From Thermoanaerobaculia bacterium (GTDB taxonomy: Bacteria > Acidobacteriota > Thermoanaerobaculia > Multivoradales > JAHEKO01): a stretch of DNA of 64,000 nucleotides. The notes below the pieces were generated by a model. It made no database searches, was not told the DNA's origin, and saw nothing but the letters and a program-made list of their open reading frames with translations. Each line of letters opens with the position of its first letter. Position 1 is the stretch's first letter. A program made the position numbers and the translations under genes. Positions 4,370 to 47,026 of the stretch are shown here, one piece after another. The DNA is taken from NCBI GenBank assembly GCA_947259925.1, contig CAMYOG010000047.1, forward strand, positions 21,704-85,703, in the 5' to 3' direction.

Positions 4370-6475
4370 CTAGTGGCAGACCGGACTCAAGCTCGTATCG
4401 AACTTGCCGAGGCCGCCCGTACCGTCACCGTTGACATACGCCTGCCATGTGGCGCGGAAGGTGTCGACCTGACGGATCGCCGACGTGTGCTGGCCTGGGT
4501 CGCCCGGCACCAGTAGGACGAACGCCATGGTCTTGACGTCGGTCGGACCGGCGCCGCAGTCGGGATTGGTCGCTGCATCATCCTCGTCGCCGATGGCGGG
4601 AGTCCGCGGACCGTTGCCCGGACCGAGACCGAACGCTCCGGCGATCGTGATGTCCGAGACGGTCAGGTCGATCCGCTTGCCGCAGAAGACGATGTCGTCC
4701 TGAGCCGCGAAACTGGCGACGCCTCCCAGGGAATTGCCGGAGAAGGCGCTCCTCGGATCGTCCGCATACCAGAAAGGACTGACGTCGGCGGCAGCGCGCA
4801 GACCCATGAAGTACTGATCCAGCTCGGTGAAGCCGTCGATCAGCTCGTTGGGCTCGGTGAGGAACGTGCTCTCGCCCGCCCCGGCGTCGCACGGCACCGG
4901 CAGGCCGGCGCTGGCGCCTGCTCCTAGATCGACGATCGCGTTACCTTCCATGCTCGAAGCACGCGGATCGCCGCCGAACTGGCTGTCGGGTACGCGCACA
5001 TTGTGGAAGAAGCTCCAGTGAGCGGCGCTCCTGCCGAGAAGATCGGCGCTGAAGAAGAACCCCGGGTGTAGGAACGCGGGGAACGCCAGCCACCGGTGGC
5101 CGGCCTCCTGGCCCATCAGCGACATCGCCGAGTTGAGTCCCAGCGTGTACGAGCCGTGGGCTCCGAAATCACCGTTCAGGGTTCCGAAGTGGCGGGCCCG
5201 CCGCGAGAACTGACTCGATCCCGGAGGTCCGTCGAGCGTGGCGCCGCCGCTGAAGCGGAACTTCTTTATCGGCGGATCGACCATGTTGTTCGCGGTCGGC
5301 CAGTAGAGTCCGATGCGGTTCATATTGAGCACCGACTCCAGCTCATCAATTGGACCGGTCTGGGCGTTCTCGAGCACGAAGGTGAAGTCGAACAGGCTGC
5401 TCGGGCCATTGCGGAAGAACCCGAGGCCCTCGGTCTGGTTCTGGATCCCCTGGTGGAACGCGAACGCCCCGAAACCGATGTCGACCACGAAGTCGGTAAA
5501 GATGACGATGAAGTCGAACTCATCGTTGTGTGTCTCGAGGAACCTCTGTGCGACCCCTAGGGTGTTCATCTGCGGGAACGCGTTGCCGATGACGAACTCC
5601 TCGAAGATGGCGCCGGCCGCGAAGGTGCCCGGCAGATCGGCGGTGTAGTCGATCTCCGTGAACGGCGTCTCGTTGTTACCCTCTGCCACACCGACCACTC
5701 CGATGGTGGCGGCGACCGAGCCGTAGTTGAGGTCGATCGAGCCGTCGGAGTGGAGAACGGCCTGCACGGAGTTGGAGTTGGCGACGCCGAACTCGGGTAC
5801 ACCGTCCCAGGTCACCACGACGGTGGTGGCATTGACCTCGGCGCGGATGTCACCGCCCGAGTCCGGGTTGAGATCGTTGAGGAAAGTGGAAACCCTCGGT
5901 GGCCCGCCGACGTGGCGAGCGGCGTCGCGTGCCGCGCTCGAGCCGTCGCCGGCGCCGAAGGTGATGTGCCCATCCGAGCCGACGAAGATCTCGTCGGTGC
6001 CGTAGGTGGTGCCGAAGAACGGGAAGCCGGCGAAAGTACCCGAGTCGACCGGCTCCACCTGGGTCGCCGAGTCATCGGTCAACCCGAGCGTGAAGCCGCC
6101 CGGATCGGCCACGATCCCACCGGCCGCGGAGCTGACCGAGAAATCTCCCGCTCCCGGGACGAAAGAGATGGTCGTTCCGGAGGGAATGTCGTACAGGTTC
6201 GGCGGCGTCGGCGGGATGATCAACGTGCCGTCGTCGACGATGACAGCGACGTCTCCCTCGTCTCGACTCTGCGGAGTGTTGGCGTTGGCGGTCAACTTGG
6301 CCGCTCGCGCCTGGAGCACCAGATTGTGGCTATCTCGATGTGGCCCGCTGCCGTCGACGTGCTCCCAGACCCCGGTGTTCTCCCACGGGATGCTCTTGGG
6401 CTCCTTTGCGGCCTGGGCCAGCGAGGGTGCCAGCAGCAGTGCGATGCCGGCCAGTGCGAATAATCGTTCTCTCAT
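4370..6475 (-). CDS. Large secreted hypothetical protein (701 aa)
   Basis: Start chosen at the internal Met (MRERLFALAGIALLLAPSLAQAA signal peptide) with GGAGG 7 nt upstream. Low-complexity Gly/Asp/Thr-rich body with no recognisable catalytic motif. Confidence 0.65.
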   Translation of the reverse strand: MRERLFALAGIALLLAPSLAQAAKEPKSIPWENTGVWEHVDGSGPHRDSHNLVLQARAAKLTANANTPQSRDEGDVAVIVDDGTLIIPPTPPNLYDIPSGTTISFVPGAGDFSVSSAAGGIVADPGGFTLGLTDDSATQVEPVDSGTFAGFPFFGTTYGTDEIFVGSDGHITFGAGDGSSAARDAARHVGGPPRVSTFLNDLNPDSGGDIRAEVNATTVVVTWDGVPEFGVANSNSVQAVLHSDGSIDLNYGSVAATIGVVGVAEGNNETPFTEIDYTADLPGTFAAGAIFEEFVIGNAFPQMNTLGVAQRFLETHNDEFDFIVIFTDFVVDIGFGAFAFHQGIQNQTEGLGFFRNGPSSLFDFTFVLENAQTGPIDELESVLNMNRIGLYWPTANNMVDPPIKKFRFSGGATLDGPPGSSQFSRRARHFGTLNGDFGAHGSYTLGLNSAMSLMGQEAGHRWLAFPAFLHPGFFFSADLLGRSAAHWSFFHNVRVPDSQFGGDPRASSMEGNAIVDLGAGASAGLPVPCDAGAGESTFLTEPNELIDGFTELDQYFMGLRAAADVSPFWYADDPRSAFSGNSLGGVASFAAQDDIVFCGKRIDLTVSDITIAGAFGLGPGNGPRTPAIGDEDDAATNPDCGAGPTDVKTMAFVLLVPGDPGQHTSAIRQVDTFRATWQAYVNGDGTGGLGKFDTSLSPVCH

Positions 6476-6769
6476 CGTGCCTCCATGTGATGGGTCGTTA
6501 TGGTTCTCGAGTTGCGTCGTCCACAAGACGACTCGTGGCCGTATTCACTCACTTGGCGCAATCGAGTGTGCGCTCGGCTATACCGACAGCTCGAGGCACC
6601 CGGAGACTCAACGAACCGGAGCTCCCTCTGAGGAGGTCCACACCACCCCATCTCATGGCGGGACCCGACTAACGAAAAGACGCGTCAGTATATTGGAGCC
6701 TGAGCGCGACCGACAAATAGCCAGCTGTCTATGTGTGGCCGCCGCTCTCGACCGGGGTCGGGAGGCCCG

Positions 6770-7198
6770 TCAGCCCTTGCGCTGGGCCAGGGCTGCGAGG
6801 AGATCGTCCTGGTCCAGGACGCCCTTGGTCTCGAGCACCTCGATCACCGCCAGAACCAGGCTCCGAGTGTCGTCGCGGCGCTGATTCGTCGCGTCGCCGG
6901 ACGCCGCCTCCGCGACGCCTTTCGACGGCCCGCTACCGGCCGGGTGGGGGTAGGTCGACCACCGCTCCTCTTCGGGCGTCTCCCCTCGGAAGAAGCCCCC
7001 CGGATCGACCCCCAGATGGTCCAGCACCTCGAGCAGCGATTCGAGCGACAGTCGCTTCTCGCCGCGCAGCGCGTCTCCCAGATAGCCACGGCTCCGCCCC
7101 ATCTCCTTCTCGACCGCCGAGACAGACTTGTTCTGCAGATCGATCAGATAGCGGAGCCGCCTGACGATCCACTCCCGGAAGCTTGAGGAGCCGTCCAT
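6770..7198 (-). CDS. XRE-family helix-turn-helix transcriptional regulator
   Basis: MDGSSSFREWIVRRLRYLIDLQNKSVSAVEKEMGRSRGYLGDALRGEKRLSLESLLEVLDHLGV is an HTH_XRE-like domain. The longer ORF in the track (to 7630) has an Arg/Ser-rich, non-protein-like extension, so the internal ATG was chosen. Confidence 0.55.
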   Translation of the reverse strand: MDGSSSFREWIVRRLRYLIDLQNKSVSAVEKEMGRSRGYLGDALRGEKRLSLESLLEVLDHLGVDPGGFFRGETPEEERWSTYPHPAGSGPSKGVAEAASGDATNQRRDDTRSLVLAVIEVLETKGVLDQDDLLAALAQRKG

Positions 7199-7340
7199 GA
7201 CGGAAATCTTGGCATCGGAGCAGTCTGGTGGAGAGAAATGCAGGAATAATCGGACGCCAGCGAATTGACAGCGCGCCATTGGCAGCGATATGCTGCTGCT
7301 GACAGAAAAGAACTGCCGGCCCAGTCGAGGCAGGGACAGC

Positions 7341-40207: not shown

Positions 40208-42409
40208 TCAGCCGCCGCTGCCCAGGCCGCTGAGAGTGACCGTGCCGTCGGCGCCGGCGTTGTGGCGGATGCGCAGGGTGGCTCGCCGGCTGCCGTTGGC
40301 GGCGGCGGTGAACCGCACCCCGATCGTGCAGCTCCCCCTGGGGGCCACGTAGGGAGCGCCCTCGCAGGTGCCGGGGACCAGCCTGAACTCGCTCGCCTGC
40401 GCACCCTCGATCGCTATCTGACGGAGCTCCAGCCGTCCGTCGCCCGGATTGCTGACGGTGAGGGTCTCGACCGAGCTGCGCGAGCCGACCTGCCGGGTGC
40501 CGAAGTCGATCGAGCGGGTGGAGAGCCTGAAGCCCGGAATGGCCGGCATCGCAGTGCCGAGCAGCGCGACCTCTCGCGACGGGCCGTCGCCGTCGTGCTG
40601 GATCACCAGCCGTGCGGCACGCGCGCCGTCCGCGCGGGGGACGAAGCGAACGGTCGCCTGGCAGGAGGCGCCCGGGGCGATACCGCTCTCGCCACAACCG
40701 ATGGCCGAGACCACGAAATCGGCAGCCGCACCGCCGGTGACCGACATCCGCTGGATCCGGAGCCGCGTGCTGCCGTCGTTGCGCAGGGTCAGGGTCTGGT
40801 TGGCCGATCCGGGTCGTCGCACCGAGCCGAAATCGAGCCGCTGGCGATCGAGCGAGAGCTCGGCGCTGGTGCCGCGCCCGACCAGGGTGATCGTCTGACG
40901 GCCTCCCGCCGCGTCGCTCTGGACGTCGAGCGCGGCCTGCAGCTCTCCCTTCCGGCTCGGCCGGAAGACGACCTCGATCGTGCAGGTCCGGCCGGGCTCG
41001 AGGGAGAATCCGGAGCAGCCGTCCTTGCCCTTGCTATAGGAGGACCGCGCCGGACCGCCGAGGGTGGCGTCGCCGAACGCCAGGGTAGTGGTGCCGGAGT
41101 TGCTCAGCACCGCCCGCCGCCGTTGCTCGAAGCCGACTCGAAGGTCCCCGAAGTCGAGCGAGCTCTTCTCGACGCTCAGGCGAGGCTCGACACCGACCCC
41201 GGCCAGCTCGACGGTGGTCTCGAGGCCGGCCGCGGTGAGCACCGCGACCGTCGCCGTCGTCTTGCCCTCGTTCGGCGGCCGGAACCGGAGCGCGACGCCA
41301 CACTCCTTGCCTGCGGTTAGGGTGGTCTGACGGCAATCCTGGCTGTCGATCGTGAATCCCGAATCGCCGGCGTCGAGCCGCACGTCGCCGACCTCGACCG
41401 GCTGACTTGTGCGATTGATGAACGCGACACGGCGCGGCTCGCTCGCCCGGCCACGGCGCTGGCGACCGAAGTCGAGCTCGGGCGGCGCGGCGTCGAGTGG
41501 CTGACCGCTCCAGACGCCGGACCCCTTGAGGGCGATCGCCGCCGCCTGTCGAGCGCCGTCGCTCTCGATCTGGAGAGAGGCGACGCGCTCGCCCGCCGCT
41601 CGCGGGGTGAAGCCGATGCGCAGGGTGCAGCTGTCGCCCGGCGGCAGCTCGTCCGACCCGCACCGCTCGCCGATCGAGAAGTCGCTGGCGTGCTCGCCGA
41701 CCACCGAGACCGCCGATACCTGCATCGGCGTAGCGCCCTCGTTGCTCAGGGTGAGCGTGCGGCTGGCCGAGCGACCGTCCACCGGCTGAGGCCCGAAATC
41801 GATCTCGGTGCGATCGGCGGTCAGGACCGGCGCCGCCCCGGTACCGGCGACCGCGAGGCGGCCGATGGCATTCCCCTCCAGGTCGAGCCACGCCGATCTC
41901 GGACCGTTGGCCGCGGGCTCGAACCGTATCTCGACGGAACAGCTCTCGCCCGGCCCGAGCGTCGAGCCGCTGCACTCGTCGCCGGCTACCGCGAACTCGT
42001 CGTCGGCGTCGCCGGTGAAGCGGACGCCGGTGAGGCTCATCGCCCGTGAGCCGCCATTGGTCACCGTCACACCGAGCGGCTCGCTCACGCCGCCGACCAC
42101 CTGCTCGCCGAACGCCAGGCTCTCGACCGAGAACGTGGCGGCCGGGGTGGTGAATCGGTAGAGCGCGAAGATCGCAGCGGCCACGGCCAGGAGCAGCACC
42201 AGGAAGAGCGGCCAGCGGCGCTTCTTCTCCCGGCGTCGACGGCCCCGGCGGCGGTCGTGGGGTCGGGCCGGCGCGGCGGGCGGCCGGCGATCCGCCGGCG
42301 GCTCGGACGGCTCAGCCGGGCGATCGAGGGGCAGCTCGGCCTGCTTCTCGTCCCCTCGGAGGGGGAGATCGAGCATGCTCCGTTTGTGGGTGGTGCGTCT
42401 CCTGGCCAA
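40208..42409 (-). CDS. Choice-of-anchor-D domain protein, 6 tandem repeats, N-terminal single-pass anchor
   Basis: Polybasic cytoplasmic tail (RRRGRRRREKKRR) and a TM helix. Six ~95-aa repeats, each with DFG...TLTL.N.G...C.G..L.PG.SCT..V.F.P...G.R.A.L.I. Confidence 0.7.
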   Translation of the reverse strand: MARRRTTHKRSMLDLPLRGDEKQAELPLDRPAEPSEPPADRRPPAAPARPHDRRRGRRRREKKRRWPLFLVLLLAVAAAIFALYRFTTPAATFSVESLAFGEQVVGGVSEPLGVTVTNGGSRAMSLTGVRFTGDADDEFAVAGDECSGSTLGPGESCSVEIRFEPAANGPRSAWLDLEGNAIGRLAVAGTGAAPVLTADRTEIDFGPQPVDGRSASRTLTLSNEGATPMQVSAVSVVGEHASDFSIGERCGSDELPPGDSCTLRIGFTPRAAGERVASLQIESDGARQAAAIALKGSGVWSGQPLDAAPPELDFGRQRRGRASEPRRVAFINRTSQPVEVGDVRLDAGDSGFTIDSQDCRQTTLTAGKECGVALRFRPPNEGKTTATVAVLTAAGLETTVELAGVGVEPRLSVEKSSLDFGDLRVGFEQRRRAVLSNSGTTTLAFGDATLGGPARSSYSKGKDGCSGFSLEPGRTCTIEVVFRPSRKGELQAALDVQSDAAGGRQTITLVGRGTSAELSLDRQRLDFGSVRRPGSANQTLTLRNDGSTRLRIQRMSVTGGAAADFVVSAIGCGESGIAPGASCQATVRFVPRADGARAARLVIQHDGDGPSREVALLGTAMPAIPGFRLSTRSIDFGTRQVGSRSSVETLTVSNPGDGRLELRQIAIEGAQASEFRLVPGTCEGAPYVAPRGSCTIGVRFTAAANGSRRATLRIRHNAGADGTVTLSGLGSGG

Positions 42410-42492: not shown

Positions 42493-44295
42493 ATGAGCGA
42501 TCAGCTATTCAAGAATCAGCCCGAGACCGGTCTCCGGAGCGCGCCCGCGGGTCGCCCATCCGCGGAGATCGCGGAGTGCCTTCTGGGCGTCTCGACGGCC
42601 CTCAACACGGCCTCGGATCTGGAGTCCGGGCTGCACGAGGTCGCCCGCCTGCTCAAGGGCTACATCGACTACGAGACGTTGGCGATCCTGCTGCTGGACG
42701 AGCTCGGGCACGAGCTCCGCTTCGAGATCGCGGTCGGATTCGACTCCGAGGTGGTCAAGCACTGGCGCTTCGGTCTCGGCCAGGGGATCGTCGGCACCGC
42801 CGCCCAGCGCGGCGAGGTCGTGGTGGCCAACGACGTCGCCTGCGACTCGCGATACATCAACGCCTCCGCCGACGTCCGGTCCGAGATCGCCGTGCCCCTG
42901 ATCAGCAAGGGCCACACGATCGGAGTGCTCGAGGTCGGCGGCTCGCGGCGGGACTTCTTCTCGGCCGAGCGGCAGCGGCTGCTGTCGTTCCTGGGCGACC
43001 ACCTGGCCGCGGCGATCGAGAGCGCGCGCCTGTACCAGAACATGAGCGAGCAGGCGCGCACGCTCTCGCTCCTGCATCAGGTCAGCAGGGAGCTGACCTC
43101 GATTCTCGATCGGCGCCAGCTCGTGCAACGCGTTGCCGAGATGGTCAAGCACCTGGTCAACTACGACATCTTCACCCTCTTCCTTTGGGACGAGCAGCAG
43201 CAGCTCCTCGTACCGTCGCTGTCGATCCGCGGTGACGGTCCGTGGACCGGCCAGAAGATGACCATGGAGATCGGTCGCGGGATCAGCGGCACCGCGGCCG
43301 CCCTCCGCCAGCCGATCCGGGTGCCGAACGTGCACCGCGAGCCGCGCTACGTCTCCTGCAGCCACGACTTCGACGTCAAGTCGGAGCTGGCGGTGCCGAT
43401 GATCTTCAAGGGGAATCTGATCGGCGTGCTCGATCTAGAGAGCGGCAGCTACGACGCCTTCAGCAACAGGGACCAGCAGCTGCTGTCGACGCTGGCGTCG
43501 TCGATGGCGATCGCGCTCGAGAACGCGCGTCTCTACGAGCAGCTCCAGGAAGACGAGAAGCGGCTGGAGAAGGACCTCTCGACCGCACGCGAGGTGCAGA
43601 AACAGCTGCTGCCCACCTCCACGCCCTGGGTCCAGGGAGTCGAGATCGGGTTCGCCTACGATCCGGCCCGGCACCTGGGCGGTGACTTCTACGATTTTCT
43701 GCCGTTCGGCGACGGCCGGATCGCGATCGCGGTCGGCGACGTCGCGGGCAAGGCGACGTCCGCGGCGCTCTACGGCTCGCTGGCGGTCGGCACGCTGCGG
43801 GAGTACGCGGCGGGCCATTCGGGCTTCGGGCCGGGTCGCATCCTGACCGACATGAACCAGAAGCTCTGCCAGCTCGGCTTCGACAATCGCTTCGTCGCGC
43901 TCGGCTTCGGTGTCTACGACAGCCACCGGCGCCAGCTGACGCTGGCGAACTCGGGACTGCCCTTCCCCTATCTGCTCCGTGGCCGCACGCTCCAGAGGAT
44001 CGAGGTCGGGGGCGTGCCGCTAGGTCTGTTGTCGGGGCGGCAATACGACGAAGTGACCATCGACCTCCACGAAGGGGACGCCGTGGTCCTGATCTCGGAC
44101 GGGGTCGAGGACAGTCTGAATTCCTCCGAGGAGGAGTTCGGCCGCGAGCGTCTCGAGGGCACGCTGCAGCGCCTGGCCAGCGGCTCCGCGCGCGAGATTG
44201 CGCGCGGCCTGCTCGCCGCGACCCACATGCACGCGGAGCAGGCCGAGACCTACGACGACCGCACCGTCCTGGTGCTCAAGGTCGCCGGCGAGTGA
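42493..44295 (+). CDS. GAF-GAF-PP2C (SpoIIE/RsbU-type) serine phosphatase
   Basis: Two GAF domains followed by a PP2C domain (GGDFYDF...AVGDVAGKATSAALYGS...LVLISDGVED). Confidence 0.85.
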   Translation: MSDQLFKNQPETGLRSAPAGRPSAEIAECLLGVSTALNTASDLESGLHEVARLLKGYIDYETLAILLLDELGHELRFEIAVGFDSEVVKHWRFGLGQGIVGTAAQRGEVVVANDVACDSRYINASADVRSEIAVPLISKGHTIGVLEVGGSRRDFFSAERQRLLSFLGDHLAAAIESARLYQNMSEQARTLSLLHQVSRELTSILDRRQLVQRVAEMVKHLVNYDIFTLFLWDEQQQLLVPSLSIRGDGPWTGQKMTMEIGRGISGTAAALRQPIRVPNVHREPRYVSCSHDFDVKSELAVPMIFKGNLIGVLDLESGSYDAFSNRDQQLLSTLASSMAIALENARLYEQLQEDEKRLEKDLSTAREVQKQLLPTSTPWVQGVEIGFAYDPARHLGGDFYDFLPFGDGRIAIAVGDVAGKATSAALYGSLAVGTLREYAAGHSGFGPGRILTDMNQKLCQLGFDNRFVALGFGVYDSHRRQLTLANSGLPFPYLLRGRTLQRIEVGGVPLGLLSGRQYDEVTIDLHEGDAVVLISDGVEDSLNSSEEEFGRERLEGTLQRLASGSAREIARGLLAATHMHAEQAETYDDRTVLVLKVAGE

Positions 44296-44357
44296 GCGCG
44301 CAGGTCCGGTCCGAGCCTCGGCTCGGGTGGGCTGTGCATGTATTCACTCTTGCCAAT

Positions 44358-44386
44358 TTGACCATCAAAACCGCCGTCCGTACTCT
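44358..44386 (+). promoter_or_regulatory. Sigma70-like promoter candidate (TTGACC-17-TACTCT)
   Basis: AT-rich island in a 68% GC context. Motifs at 44358-44363 and 44381-44386. Confidence 0.3.
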
Positions 44387-44677
44387 CTTTTCATCGACCA
44401 CGACAAGGGCAACCTCGGCGTGAGCCGGGGACGCAAAGCCAGGGGCCCGCACACGGGCTAGCCGAGCCGCCGAACGGTCTTTCCCGGTCGGACTGGAATA
44501 CCTGCGGGCCGGGGGGAGGTGACCTGACCTCTCGTGACTGGGGTGTTGAGACCGTGAGAAACGGCGGCAACTACGAATACTCGAGGCGGACAGTGTCCGG
44601 GTGGTCGAGGAGCGCCACCAACCGGGGGGAAGAAGAGTGTTGATCTGAGTCGACACTTCGTCGACTTGTCTCTCGTC

Positions 44678-44708
44678 GAGCGGCTCTCCGGAGCCGCTCC
44701 TTTTTCTT
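44678..44708 (+). terminator. Rho-independent terminator (plus strand)
   Basis: GAGCGGCTC-tccg-GAGCCGCTC hairpin followed by CTTTTTCTT. There is no plus-strand CDS within 380 nt upstream. Confidence 0.6.
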
Positions 44709-44719
44709 GGCGCCGGGGC

Positions 44720-45871: not shown

Positions 45872-46237
45872 CGAAGAATTCTACCGGCAGATCGCGAGCC
45901 GCTTGGTGAACTATGAGTTTGACAACCCGGGGGTTGATCCTGGAACATCTGGACAGCTTCGCATCCGCATGCTTCGTTCGCCGGAGTAGTGCGGCGGTTT
46001 CGAGGGTTTGGGCGGCCCGAGGAACCGGGCGGGGTGGGGCCCGCCAAATGGGGTACGCCCAGAAGGGAGGTGATCCAGTGGTATCTGATATACGCGGTTT
46101 AGTGGAGGTGGCGTCCTCTTAGGGGCTCTCCACAGCGTCCGTGGCGCTATCACTGGAGGCACCCCTCAAGGGGTACCCCACGCCACCGAGACAAACCCGA
46201 GGCCTCGGCTCCCAGGAGTCGAGGCCTTTCTAGTTCG

Positions 46238-47026
46238 ATGAGAATCGAGTTCGACCGCGAGGCGGGCGAGGTAACCCTCGGCTTCGACGACCGCGAGGAA
46301 GTGCGGAGCTTCTTCGAGCGCGCCGTCTCCGAGGGCGGCGTCCTGGTCGAGCTCTCCGACCAGCCGGCGTTCCGCCAGGAGGTGACGATCCAGGCGCGCT
46401 CGGACGACGGGGTCGACTTCGCCTGCCGGGCGGAGGTGAGCGGTGTGTCGAAGACCGCGGCGGGGAAGTACGCCACCGCTCTGCTCCTCGGCGGCTGGGG
46501 CGCCGCCGAGACCGAGCGGCTCAAGCTGGCGCTGGCGACCGCGAGCAGTCCGCGCCGGAGTACGACGGCCGCCGACGCCGACCTCGAGGAGGAGGCGGGC
46601 GAGACCCGAGGCACCTCGCCGATTCATCGGATCCGGGCGATGAACCCGAACCAGCGCACCATTCTGGCGCGCAAGGCGGATCGGGTCGAACGGCAGATCC
46701 TGTTGAAGGACAGCTCGCCGCAGGTGCTGCAAGCGCTACTGCTCAACCCCCGGGTCGAGGGGAAGGACGTCGTCCGCGTGGTCAAATCGACCCACACGAC
46801 GGGGGCGCTGCTCAAGCGGATCGTCGAGGACGGCCGCTGGGGGAAGAACCAGGAGGTCCTCGGCCTGGTGGCGAAGAACCCGAAGACGCCGTCGCCCGTG
46901 GCGCTGCGGCTGATCGAGAAGCTCCGGACGTCCGACCTGCGCTTCATGGCCAAGATCTCGTCCGGAGTTCGTGACAACATCCGGCGCGCCGCCCTACGCG
47001 AGTACATGCGGCGGACGGGCAGGTAG
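46238..47026 (+). CDS. Hypothetical protein with C-terminal HEAT-like helical repeats
   Basis: 262-aa ORF. Repeated ...LL.NP...VV..V.... helices. No SD. Preceded by a structured leader. Confidence 0.45.
   Translation: MRIEFDREAGEVTLGFDDREEVRSFFERAVSEGGVLVELSDQPAFRQEVTIQARSDDGVDFACRAEVSGVSKTAAGKYATALLLGGWGAAETERLKLALATASSPRRSTTAADADLEEEAGETRGTSPIHRIRAMNPNQRTILARKADRVERQILLKDSSPQVLQALLLNPRVEGKDVVRVVKSTHTTGALLKRIVEDGRWGKNQEVLGLVAKNPKTPSPVALRLIEKLRTSDLRFMAKISSGVRDNIRRAALREYMRRTGR

Follow-up and report, generated by a model that had tools for sequence, protein, structure and literature searches.

Does the 424-bp gap between a phosphatase gene and a convergent gene for a 383-aa protein, located in a 64,000-nt stretch of contig CAMYOG010000047.1 from a Thermoanaerobaculia bacterium (hereafter, the window), encode an RNA of its own, and if so, what kind of RNA is it? 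The original prediction had placed here an unclassified non-coding RNA (ncRNA) with its own promoter and intrinsic terminator. We found that the RNA belongs to a known family in a rare, precedented arrangement without an open reading frame (ORF). Its 5΄ part is a cyclic di-GMP (c-di-GMP)-I riboswitch aptamer, and the whole unit, judging from related loci, appears to be the leader and the 3΄ untranslated region (3΄ UTR) that remain of a riboswitch-controlled adhesin mRNA whose coding sequence has been lost. What is new here is this traceable origin, an mRNA minus its coding sequence with both ends conserved, together with signs of continued selection. The coordinates of all features are listed in Table 1.

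An Rfam covariance search of the whole window returned a single match at the gathering level, namely RF01051, the c-di-GMP-I (GEMM-I) riboswitch (45.3 bits compared with a gathering score of 35), which covered positions 44398–44474 on the plus strand and the full model (1–87). The first ~84 nt of the supposedly unclassified RNA are therefore a c-di-GMP-I aptamer, and the label 'unknown ncRNA' is replaced by a c-di-GMP-I riboswitch in a poorly studied lineage. The original prediction was right that the RNA is not transfer-messenger RNA (tmRNA), RNase P RNA, signal recognition particle RNA or 6S RNA. Examples of RF01051 include Vc2 of Vibrio cholerae and Bc2 of Bacillus thuringiensis, the latter situated before the collagen adhesin gene cap. 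The junction motifs AAGGGCAA, GACGCAAAGC and GCCGAA align to the RF01051 consensus and are invariant or nearly so in the alignment of the homologues (A3); we take them to correspond to the ligand-contacting G20, A47 and C92 of the Vc2 structure. In this class of riboswitch, P2 is capped by a GNRA tetraloop whose receptor is in P3, and the P2 loop has the GNRA form in all nine sequences (GUGA in the window; GCGA, GUAA or GAGA in the homologues).

The three-helix fold of the aptamer (P1, P2/P1a and P3/P1b) is also supported by covariation. Among nine homologues, 94% of the cells were paired and 7 of 24 pairs displayed compensatory double changes, values that none of 500 shuffles reached, and slid controls were only 23–40% paired. 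The Rfam-derived structure was used for this analysis; RNAalifold mispaired the junction when applied to the aptamer alignment. Six of the homologues (L003, L034, L035, L038, L039 and L040) scored 42–54 bits on RF01051. Two others were below its gathering score: L001 gave 34.4 bits on the GGC variant model and L004 gave no match at E ≤ 0.1. Both reached 84–90 bits on a family-specific model (R2), on which the window scored 88 bits and intact copies 83–99 bits. The c-di-GMP-I-GGC variant (RF03167) was considered and rejected for the window: it was the top-listed clan member with permissive filters, its 44.7 bits are under the gathering score of 59, and the window has CGCAAAGC in place of the CGCGAAG of the RF03167 consensus. 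Both observations place the aptamer, as far as its sequence goes, in the canonical c-di-GMP-I class, and the window RNA is predicted to bind c-di-GMP.

We compared the locus with those of relatives, which were reached by a protein-homologue search and per-protein look-ups; a contig scan with the phosphatase gave no match. The phosphatase orthologues are 75–84% identical and occur in metagenome-assembled Thermoanaerobaculia-type Acidobacteriota, one genome record being titled Candidatus Multivoradales. Eleven distinct loci were fetched, of which ten have sequence downstream of the phosphatase gene (the contig of L036 stops at this gene); L002 and L004 belong to the same genome. The riboswitch unit is located directly 3΄ of the phosphatase orthologue in 10 of 10 readable related genomes.

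L002/L004 and L003 also have this promoter and aptamer, and 57–65 nt downstream of the aptamer come the Shine-Dalgarno (SD) sequence and ATG of a gene for a secreted protein. The L004 protein (1231 aa) resembles a surface adhesin, with DUF11/DUF7507 repeats, an SdrD-B-like domain, Ser-Asp repeats and DUF7467 at its C-terminus; the L003 gene is cut by the contig end, leaving its first 77 aa. Adhesin genes are presented as a typical target class of c-di-GMP riboswitches in three papers (PMC4933901, PMC7423583, PMC6200980). The window, L001, L034, L035, L038, L039 and L040 instead carry the promoter and aptamer, a spacer, a G-run, a hairpin (H) and the terminator, with no ORF, and L033 displays this arrangement with a broken aptamer; the coding sequence is thus missing in the window and seven other genomes. 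In blastn comparisons, the ORF-less units matched L004 at either end, to its leader and to its segment past the stop codon, respectively, and at no place in between. Indeed, the last ~85 nt of the window unit (G-run, H and terminator) match the adhesin-gene 3΄ UTR of L004. That locus reads TAA-GGGGGATTCCTCGACCTGAGTCGAC, with the G-run directly after the adhesin stop codon, and past the stop it continues with GGGGGATTCC-TCGACCTGAGTCGAC-ggctt-GTCGGCTC, the terminator and then the convergent orthologue of the 383-aa gene. Because L003 and L004 encode adhesins with homologous N-termini and yet lie on distant branches of the phosphatase tree, the gene-bearing state is ancestral and the ORF-less state is derived. 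The coding sequence was lost approximately three times or more (at least once each in the L039 lineage, the L040 lineage and the clade of the window, L001, L033, L035, L034 and L038), a count that is approximate because it comes from a midpoint-rooted neighbor-joining tree of a single protein, the phosphatase.

Rearranged copies were also observed at this locus. At L002 4950–5088 (corresponding to L004 1175–1313), between the phosphatase gene and the riboswitch promoter, a remnant encoding DQFGAVILREFIPE* matches the adhesin C-terminus GDQFGAVILREFVSE and is followed by a second copy of H and the terminator; by this match, the segment is evidently a decayed tandem duplicate of the riboswitch-adhesin unit. 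L039 carries two tandem units (6745–7296). Unit 1 has the promoter, an aptamer with a ~30-nt deletion (43 bits on R2) and an SD remnant without ATG, and unit 2 has no –35 element, an intact aptamer (90 bits on R2; 42.6 bits on RF01051), a spacer, H and the terminator. L003, the sister of L039 with 88% phosphatase identity and from the same metagenome, retains the adhesin gene. In L033 (4056–4242), the promoter and 3΄ module are intact, and P3, the P1 3΄ strand and the spacer are gone, through a deletion that fuses the G-run of the P2 3΄ strand to that of the 3΄ module. The L033 junction suggests that microhomology between G-runs drives deletions at the riboswitch locus.

The sequence elements that would make the unit a separate transcript were next compared among the loci. 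The predicted promoter is present and conserved in all homologous loci; a –35 TTGAC and a TAnnnT –10 at 17-nt spacing are kept in L001, L003, L004, L033, L034, L035, L038, L039 and L040. The mean identity of the promoter block was 0.71; shuffled pairs gave 0.57 and a control intergenic region 0.54. A generic promoter scan missed this promoter because TACTCT agrees with TATAAT at only three of six positions. Transcription would start near position 44393, ~7 nt past the –10 element and 2–3 nt before helix P1, and a stand-alone transcript of ~316 nt would extend from this promoter to the terminator at 44708. The 318-nt stretch 44393–44710 folds better than its shuffles (z = –2.69).

At the other end, the terminator scan called the canonical plus-strand terminator that had been proposed. 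Its stem of 9 bp (7 G-C), 4-nt loop and U-tract CTTTTTCTT are those of an intrinsic (Rho-independent) terminator. The proposed hairpin upstream of it is also present, although its core, GTCGAC-acttc-GTCGAC, lies at 44649–44665, one base from the position first given, and its stem extends to 8 bp. In an alignment of 10 sequences (A4), 96% of the cells of hairpin H (helix 1) were paired, with double changes at 3 of 8 pairs; the corresponding values were 94% and 5 of 9 for the terminator (helix 2), and 95% and 8 of 17 for both jointly. The conservation and covariation that the original prediction suggested looking for were thus observed for the aptamer, H and the terminator, and the claim of a separate transcription unit holds in that its promoter and its terminator are both conserved in relatives. 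A model of the 3΄ module (R1) scored 76 bits over 44637–44709. No second copy of the H and terminator module was found with R1 in the window or in 16 other sources, and pattern searches agreed; the module is therefore specific to this locus and is not a generic repeated terminator. Sub-threshold Rfam matches in the 3΄ part (sX12, 17 bits; mmgR, 14 bits) were dismissed as terminator look-alikes, and an enrichment of GGA motifs, as in CsrA sponges, was unconvincing when judged by eye.

The spacer behaves differently from both ends. It contains a weak remnant of an anti-P1 segment (CGGTCGG, 44486–44492) and an SD-like run (GGGGGGAGG, 44511–44519) after which there is no usable ORF. Among the ORF-less relatives, its length ranges from 12 to 214 nt, neither sequence nor length is conserved, and its identity (0.31) equals that of shuffled sequences (0.31); local similarity was significant only for L034 compared with L038. 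The spacers displayed no codon periodicity, and tblastn and blastn searches for adhesin coding remnants in them returned only noise. No adhesin homologue was found in the whole 64-kb window. The GC skew of the spacer is positive, which, speculatively, is compatible with avoidance of C-rich Rho-loading sites on an untranslated RNA.

We consider it fairly probable that the unit is a maintained, c-di-GMP-binding, stand-alone RNA that has outlived its gene. The chief alternative, which we regard as unlikely yet weighty, is a relic without function: after deletion of the adhesin gene, its promoter, aptamer and terminator would not yet have decayed, and any transcription would be inconsequential. 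Such a relic would fit the demonstrably missing coding sequence that relatives still possess, the unconstrained spacer and the weak expression platform of the window. However, phosphatase 4-fold degenerate sites are near saturation (0.42–0.64 identity over all genome pairs, with a GC content at third codon positions of 0.75–0.96), and the control intergenic region upstream of the phosphatase gene is at the random level (0.54 compared with 0.51 for shuffled sequences). Neutral sites are thus saturated and the control DNA and spacers are randomized, whereas the aptamer (0.78 compared with 0.61 shuffled), the promoter and the 3΄ module (0.64 compared with 0.55 shuffled) are not. Divergence at the neutral rate, as expected of a pseudogene remnant, was observed for the spacer only. 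When the ORF-less clade was considered by itself (five intact members), pairing held in 115 of 120 cells and 6 of 24 pairs displayed compensatory changes, with the GNRA loops preserved. L034 and L038 share a 24-nt spacer block whose score was reached by 2 of 300 shuffles, indicating that their ORF-less state was inherited from a common ancestor; their aptamers are still 91% identical, compared with 0.42 at 4-fold sites. ORF-less aptamers are no more distant from that of gene-linked L004 (0.73–0.88 identity) than the other gene-linked aptamer, L003, is (0.75). Because the spacers lack codon periodicity and protein similarity, the losses do not appear to be recent, and at least three independent losses all spared both mRNA ends. 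From these observations, we infer that the ORF-less unit is under purifying selection and is, hence, a non-coding c-di-GMP-binding RNA and not a cis-regulator. Several points weigh against this view and toward the relic. The aptamer of L033 has lost its 3΄ half and has no R2 match, unit 1 of L039 is truncated (43 bits compared with 83–99 in intact copies), L002 keeps the C-terminal pseudogene remnant of a second adhesin copy, and the window has only a weak form of the anti-P1 hairpin that L004 has in perfect form (–23.5 kcal/mol). Decay clearly occurs readily at this locus, and some of its copies are defunct. The count of the losses is a rough guide only, and no coding remnant would be expected after a clean recent deletion. 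The transcript and its start site are predictions from the sequence. The sample comprises ten genomes, all found through the neighboring phosphatase or a pattern derived from the aptamer. Moreover, we detected no single-stranded seed, target or alternative pairing that is conserved, and minimum free energy folding with P1 either imposed or disallowed did not reveal a consistent ligand-dependent switch or a consistent change in SD access.

Could the unit instead still act in cis? It might form a c-di-GMP-sensing 3΄ UTR of the phosphatase mRNA, or a ligand-controlled antisense or colliding transcript at the 383-aa gene. Its position directly 3΄ of the phosphatase gene in all ten loci would agree with the former, as would the report that Vc2 stabilizes RNA upstream of itself (10.1101/617340), although this synteny is partly an ascertainment effect, the loci having been found through the phosphatase. 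That the RNA might simply be a long phosphatase 3΄ UTR had been raised with the original prediction. The terminator scan called no terminator at the hairpin that follows the phosphatase stop codon, and, because no U-tract terminator lies between position 44295 and the promoter, read-through from the phosphatase gene into the unit is possible; a terminator is likewise lacking at this place in L034 and L040. Against this stand the conserved dedicated promoter and the terminator between the phosphatase gene and that promoter in L002/L004. As for the antisense version, the downstream gene is convergent in the window, L001, L033, L035 and L039, but the strong, conserved terminator should allow little antisense read-through, and L038 and L040 retain the unit where the convergent gene is absent. 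We therefore judge cis action to be improbable. Still harder to credit, and in our view very improbable, is a riboswitch controlling a small protein in the ~200 nt past the aptamer, for example the 29-aa GTG ORF at 44554–44643. This ORF does have a G-rich stretch upstream, and overlooked small ORFs behind c-di-GMP riboswitches in Clostridioides difficile provide a precedent (10.64898/2026.06.10.731418). The ORF is not conserved, however: in L001, L033 and L035 no ORF reaches 10 aa, no peptide is common to the units, and tblastx matches track the H and terminator DNA in several frames. The GC content by codon position in the 29-aa frame is not coding-like, and spacer similarity is at the random level. 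The region is thus non-coding, as had been predicted. An expression platform followed by a same-strand ORF was found in L003 and L004 and not in the window, where the unit is therefore not a riboswitch in the functional sense, with nothing left to regulate in cis.

If the unit is a maintained c-di-GMP-binding RNA, ligand binding would close P1 (GACC/GGUC) and compact the three-helix junction, and the most likely consequence would be that the ligand alters how the RNA folds or how long it lasts, with the conserved G-run, hairpin H and terminator together as a constant output end. The RNA might serve as a c-di-GMP buffer or sponge, as proposed for merRNA of Bdellovibrio, or as a ligand-gated small RNA, by analogy with the Vc2-stabilized RNAs of V. 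cholerae; our evidence favors neither. We advance only tentatively, as a possibility on the unlikely side, a more specific form of the latter, a c-di-GMP-gated trans-acting small RNA in which the G-run and H form the effector, which would bind a protein or base-pair in trans, and the aptamer sets abundance or conformation. In this form, the aptamer and 3΄-UTR module would have been kept together after adhesin loss in at least three lineages. Two candidate switch elements were rejected. A long-range partner of the P1 5΄ strand, UCGACCAC with GUGGUCGA (44602–44609), stood out only in the window, where 2% of shuffles reached it, and was at chance level in six other units. The anti-P1 hairpin, a partner of the P1 3΄ strand, is not shared by all units: it is perfect in L004 and recognizable in L001, L035 and L039, but only a weak form occurs in the window, L034, L038 and L003.

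Compared with c-di-GMP-I riboswitches in general, the window unit has the same aptamer, with covarying P1, P2 and P3, a GNRA loop on P2 and the junction motifs, and in L003 and L004 this aptamer is located in the 5΄ UTR of an adhesin-like gene, the same target class. The window unit differs in that it has no downstream ORF and its anti-P1 element is degenerate; its nearest terminator, 200 nt past the aptamer, is the old 3΄-UTR terminator and not that of an expression platform. It would work most like the ORF-less riboswitch RNAs of the merRNA type. In Bdellovibrio bacteriovorus, merRNA is a massively expressed RNA of 445 nt that contains a c-di-GMP riboswitch, was proposed to be a c-di-GMP store or sponge and was reported to be confined to Bdellovibrio (PMC3627812). 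Compared by description, both are independent c-di-GMP-aptamer transcripts without a conserved downstream ORF, the window transcript being a predicted one. The phylum differs, however, and the window unit has a traceable adhesin-mRNA origin and a conserved 3΄ hairpin module and occurs in several deeply diverged genomes. In V. cholerae, c-di-GMP binding protects Vc2-dependent small RNAs from degradation (10.1101/617340). There too, a c-di-GMP-I aptamer is part of a non-coding transcript, and the ligand-bound fold could set the lifetime of the RNA. The V. cholerae aptamer is at the 3΄ end and also regulates tfoY, whereas the window aptamer is at the 5΄ end of an RNA that would end at a canonical terminator, with no regulated gene.

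The riboswitch-adhesin loci of the relatives point to c-di-GMP control of a surface adhesin in Thermoanaerobaculia-type bacteria. After merRNA of Bdellovibrio, the window unit would be a second case of a c-di-GMP riboswitch transcript without a gene, one that is independent of the first and whose evolution can be traced. It also amounts to a natural experiment, since the ancestral gene-bearing state in relatives shows which parts of an mRNA stay under selection after the protein is lost. If the selection signal holds, the locus would support the idea that riboswitch RNAs may themselves have a function, for instance ligand buffering or regulation in trans, and if the trans-acting form should be true, a c-di-GMP riboswitch acting in trans would be conserved across a clade of Thermoanaerobaculia-type Acidobacteriota. 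For testing, the locus offers a defined RNA of 316 nt, with P1, hairpin H and the G-run as mutational targets.

Table 1. Positions of the features in and beside the ORF-less c-di-GMP-I riboswitch unit (window coordinates)
Feature	Position	Strand	Sequence or remark	Basis
GAF-GAF-SpoIIE (PP2C/RsbU-like) phosphatase gene, 600 aa	42493–44295	+	Upstream neighbor	Pfam matches
Gap without conserved ORF, 424 bp	44296–44719		Between phosphatase gene (+) and convergent 383-aa gene (–)	
Hairpin without U-tract	44312–44327	+	CCGAGCC-tc-GGCTCGG; 3΄ of phosphatase stop codon	Sequence
Promoter	44358–44386	+	–35 TTGACC (44358–44363), 17-nt spacer, –10 TACTCT (44381–44386)	
c-di-GMP-I (GEMM-I) riboswitch aptamer, ~84 nt	44396–44479	+		Rfam RF01051, covariation
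P1	44396–44399 with 44476–44479; 44401–44402 with 44471–44472		GACC with GGTC (first segment)	
P2	44414–44419 with 44424–44429		GNRA loop GUGA, 44420–44423	
P3	44437–44447 with 44456–44468			
Leader/spacer	44480–44621	+	Degenerate, G-rich; follows aptamer	
Start of 3΄ module	44624–44646	+	G-run GGGGGG (44624–44629) and motif TTGATCTGA	Alignments
Hairpin H	44647–44667	+	8-bp stem GAGTCGAC / GTCGACTT, variable 5-nt loop ACTTC	
Intrinsic terminator	44678–44699, U-tract to 44708	+	GAGCGGCTC-tccg-GAGCCGCTC, then CTTTTTCTT	Terminator scan
Convergent gene, 383 aa	44720–45871	–		ORF list

The surroundings of the unit are as the original prediction described them, with a convergent adjacent gene and the next plus-strand ORF far away, beginning at 46238 past the strong terminator and the convergent gene. 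No Pfam or NCBIfam family matched the 383-aa convergent protein, an orthologue of which is encoded just past the adhesin 3΄ UTR in L004 (70% identity) and just past the ORF-less unit in L001, L033, L035 and L039 (70–73% identity by tblastn). Divergent from the phosphatase gene, a gene at 40208–42409 on the minus strand encodes a 733-aa protein with HYDIN/VesB-like Ig repeats and a DUF1573 region, likely another surface protein; this gene is syntenic in L001, L002, L034, L036, L039 and L040.

A second conserved structured-RNA candidate was observed at 45918–46232 on the plus strand, in the gap before the plus-strand gene at 46238. It has a –35-like element (GTTTGACAAC, 45917–45926) and ends in the hairpin AGGCCTCGGCTCC-cagg-GAGTCGAGGCC followed by TTTCT, and its fold z-score is –4.09. 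About 300 nt align closely, with few mismatches, to L040 (~4620–4945), and the 5΄ part aligns to L034 (5040–5161), synonymous sites being saturated between these genomes; in both L034 and L040, the candidate is located immediately past the terminator of the ORF-less unit. No Rfam family reached its gathering score for this candidate (the best was RF01867, CC2171, at 23.7 bits compared with 75), and ARAGORN found neither tRNA nor tmRNA in it.

Finally, a DNA pattern derived from the 3΄ half of the aptamer matched, in GTDB genomes, only two loci that were already known. A further 27 matches in metagenomes were set aside, as they mostly represent another riboswitch type and have neither the promoter nor the 3΄ module in common with the window unit; in these, the SD sequence is inside the P1 3΄ strand and the ORF starts 3–12 nt past the pattern match. 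Four of the metagenome contigs (L009, L012, L023 and L028) carry this other c-di-GMP-I type, with the SD sequence in the P1 3΄ strand (GCCGAAAGGAG), 7–12 nt upstream of a gene for a conserved protein of ~85 aa, apparently a small helix-turn-helix protein, with the motif LNDLAA.TGLPTGH.GRHLRTLERDRLARY. Other metagenome matches with the SD sequence in P1 precede secreted proteins with signal peptides.

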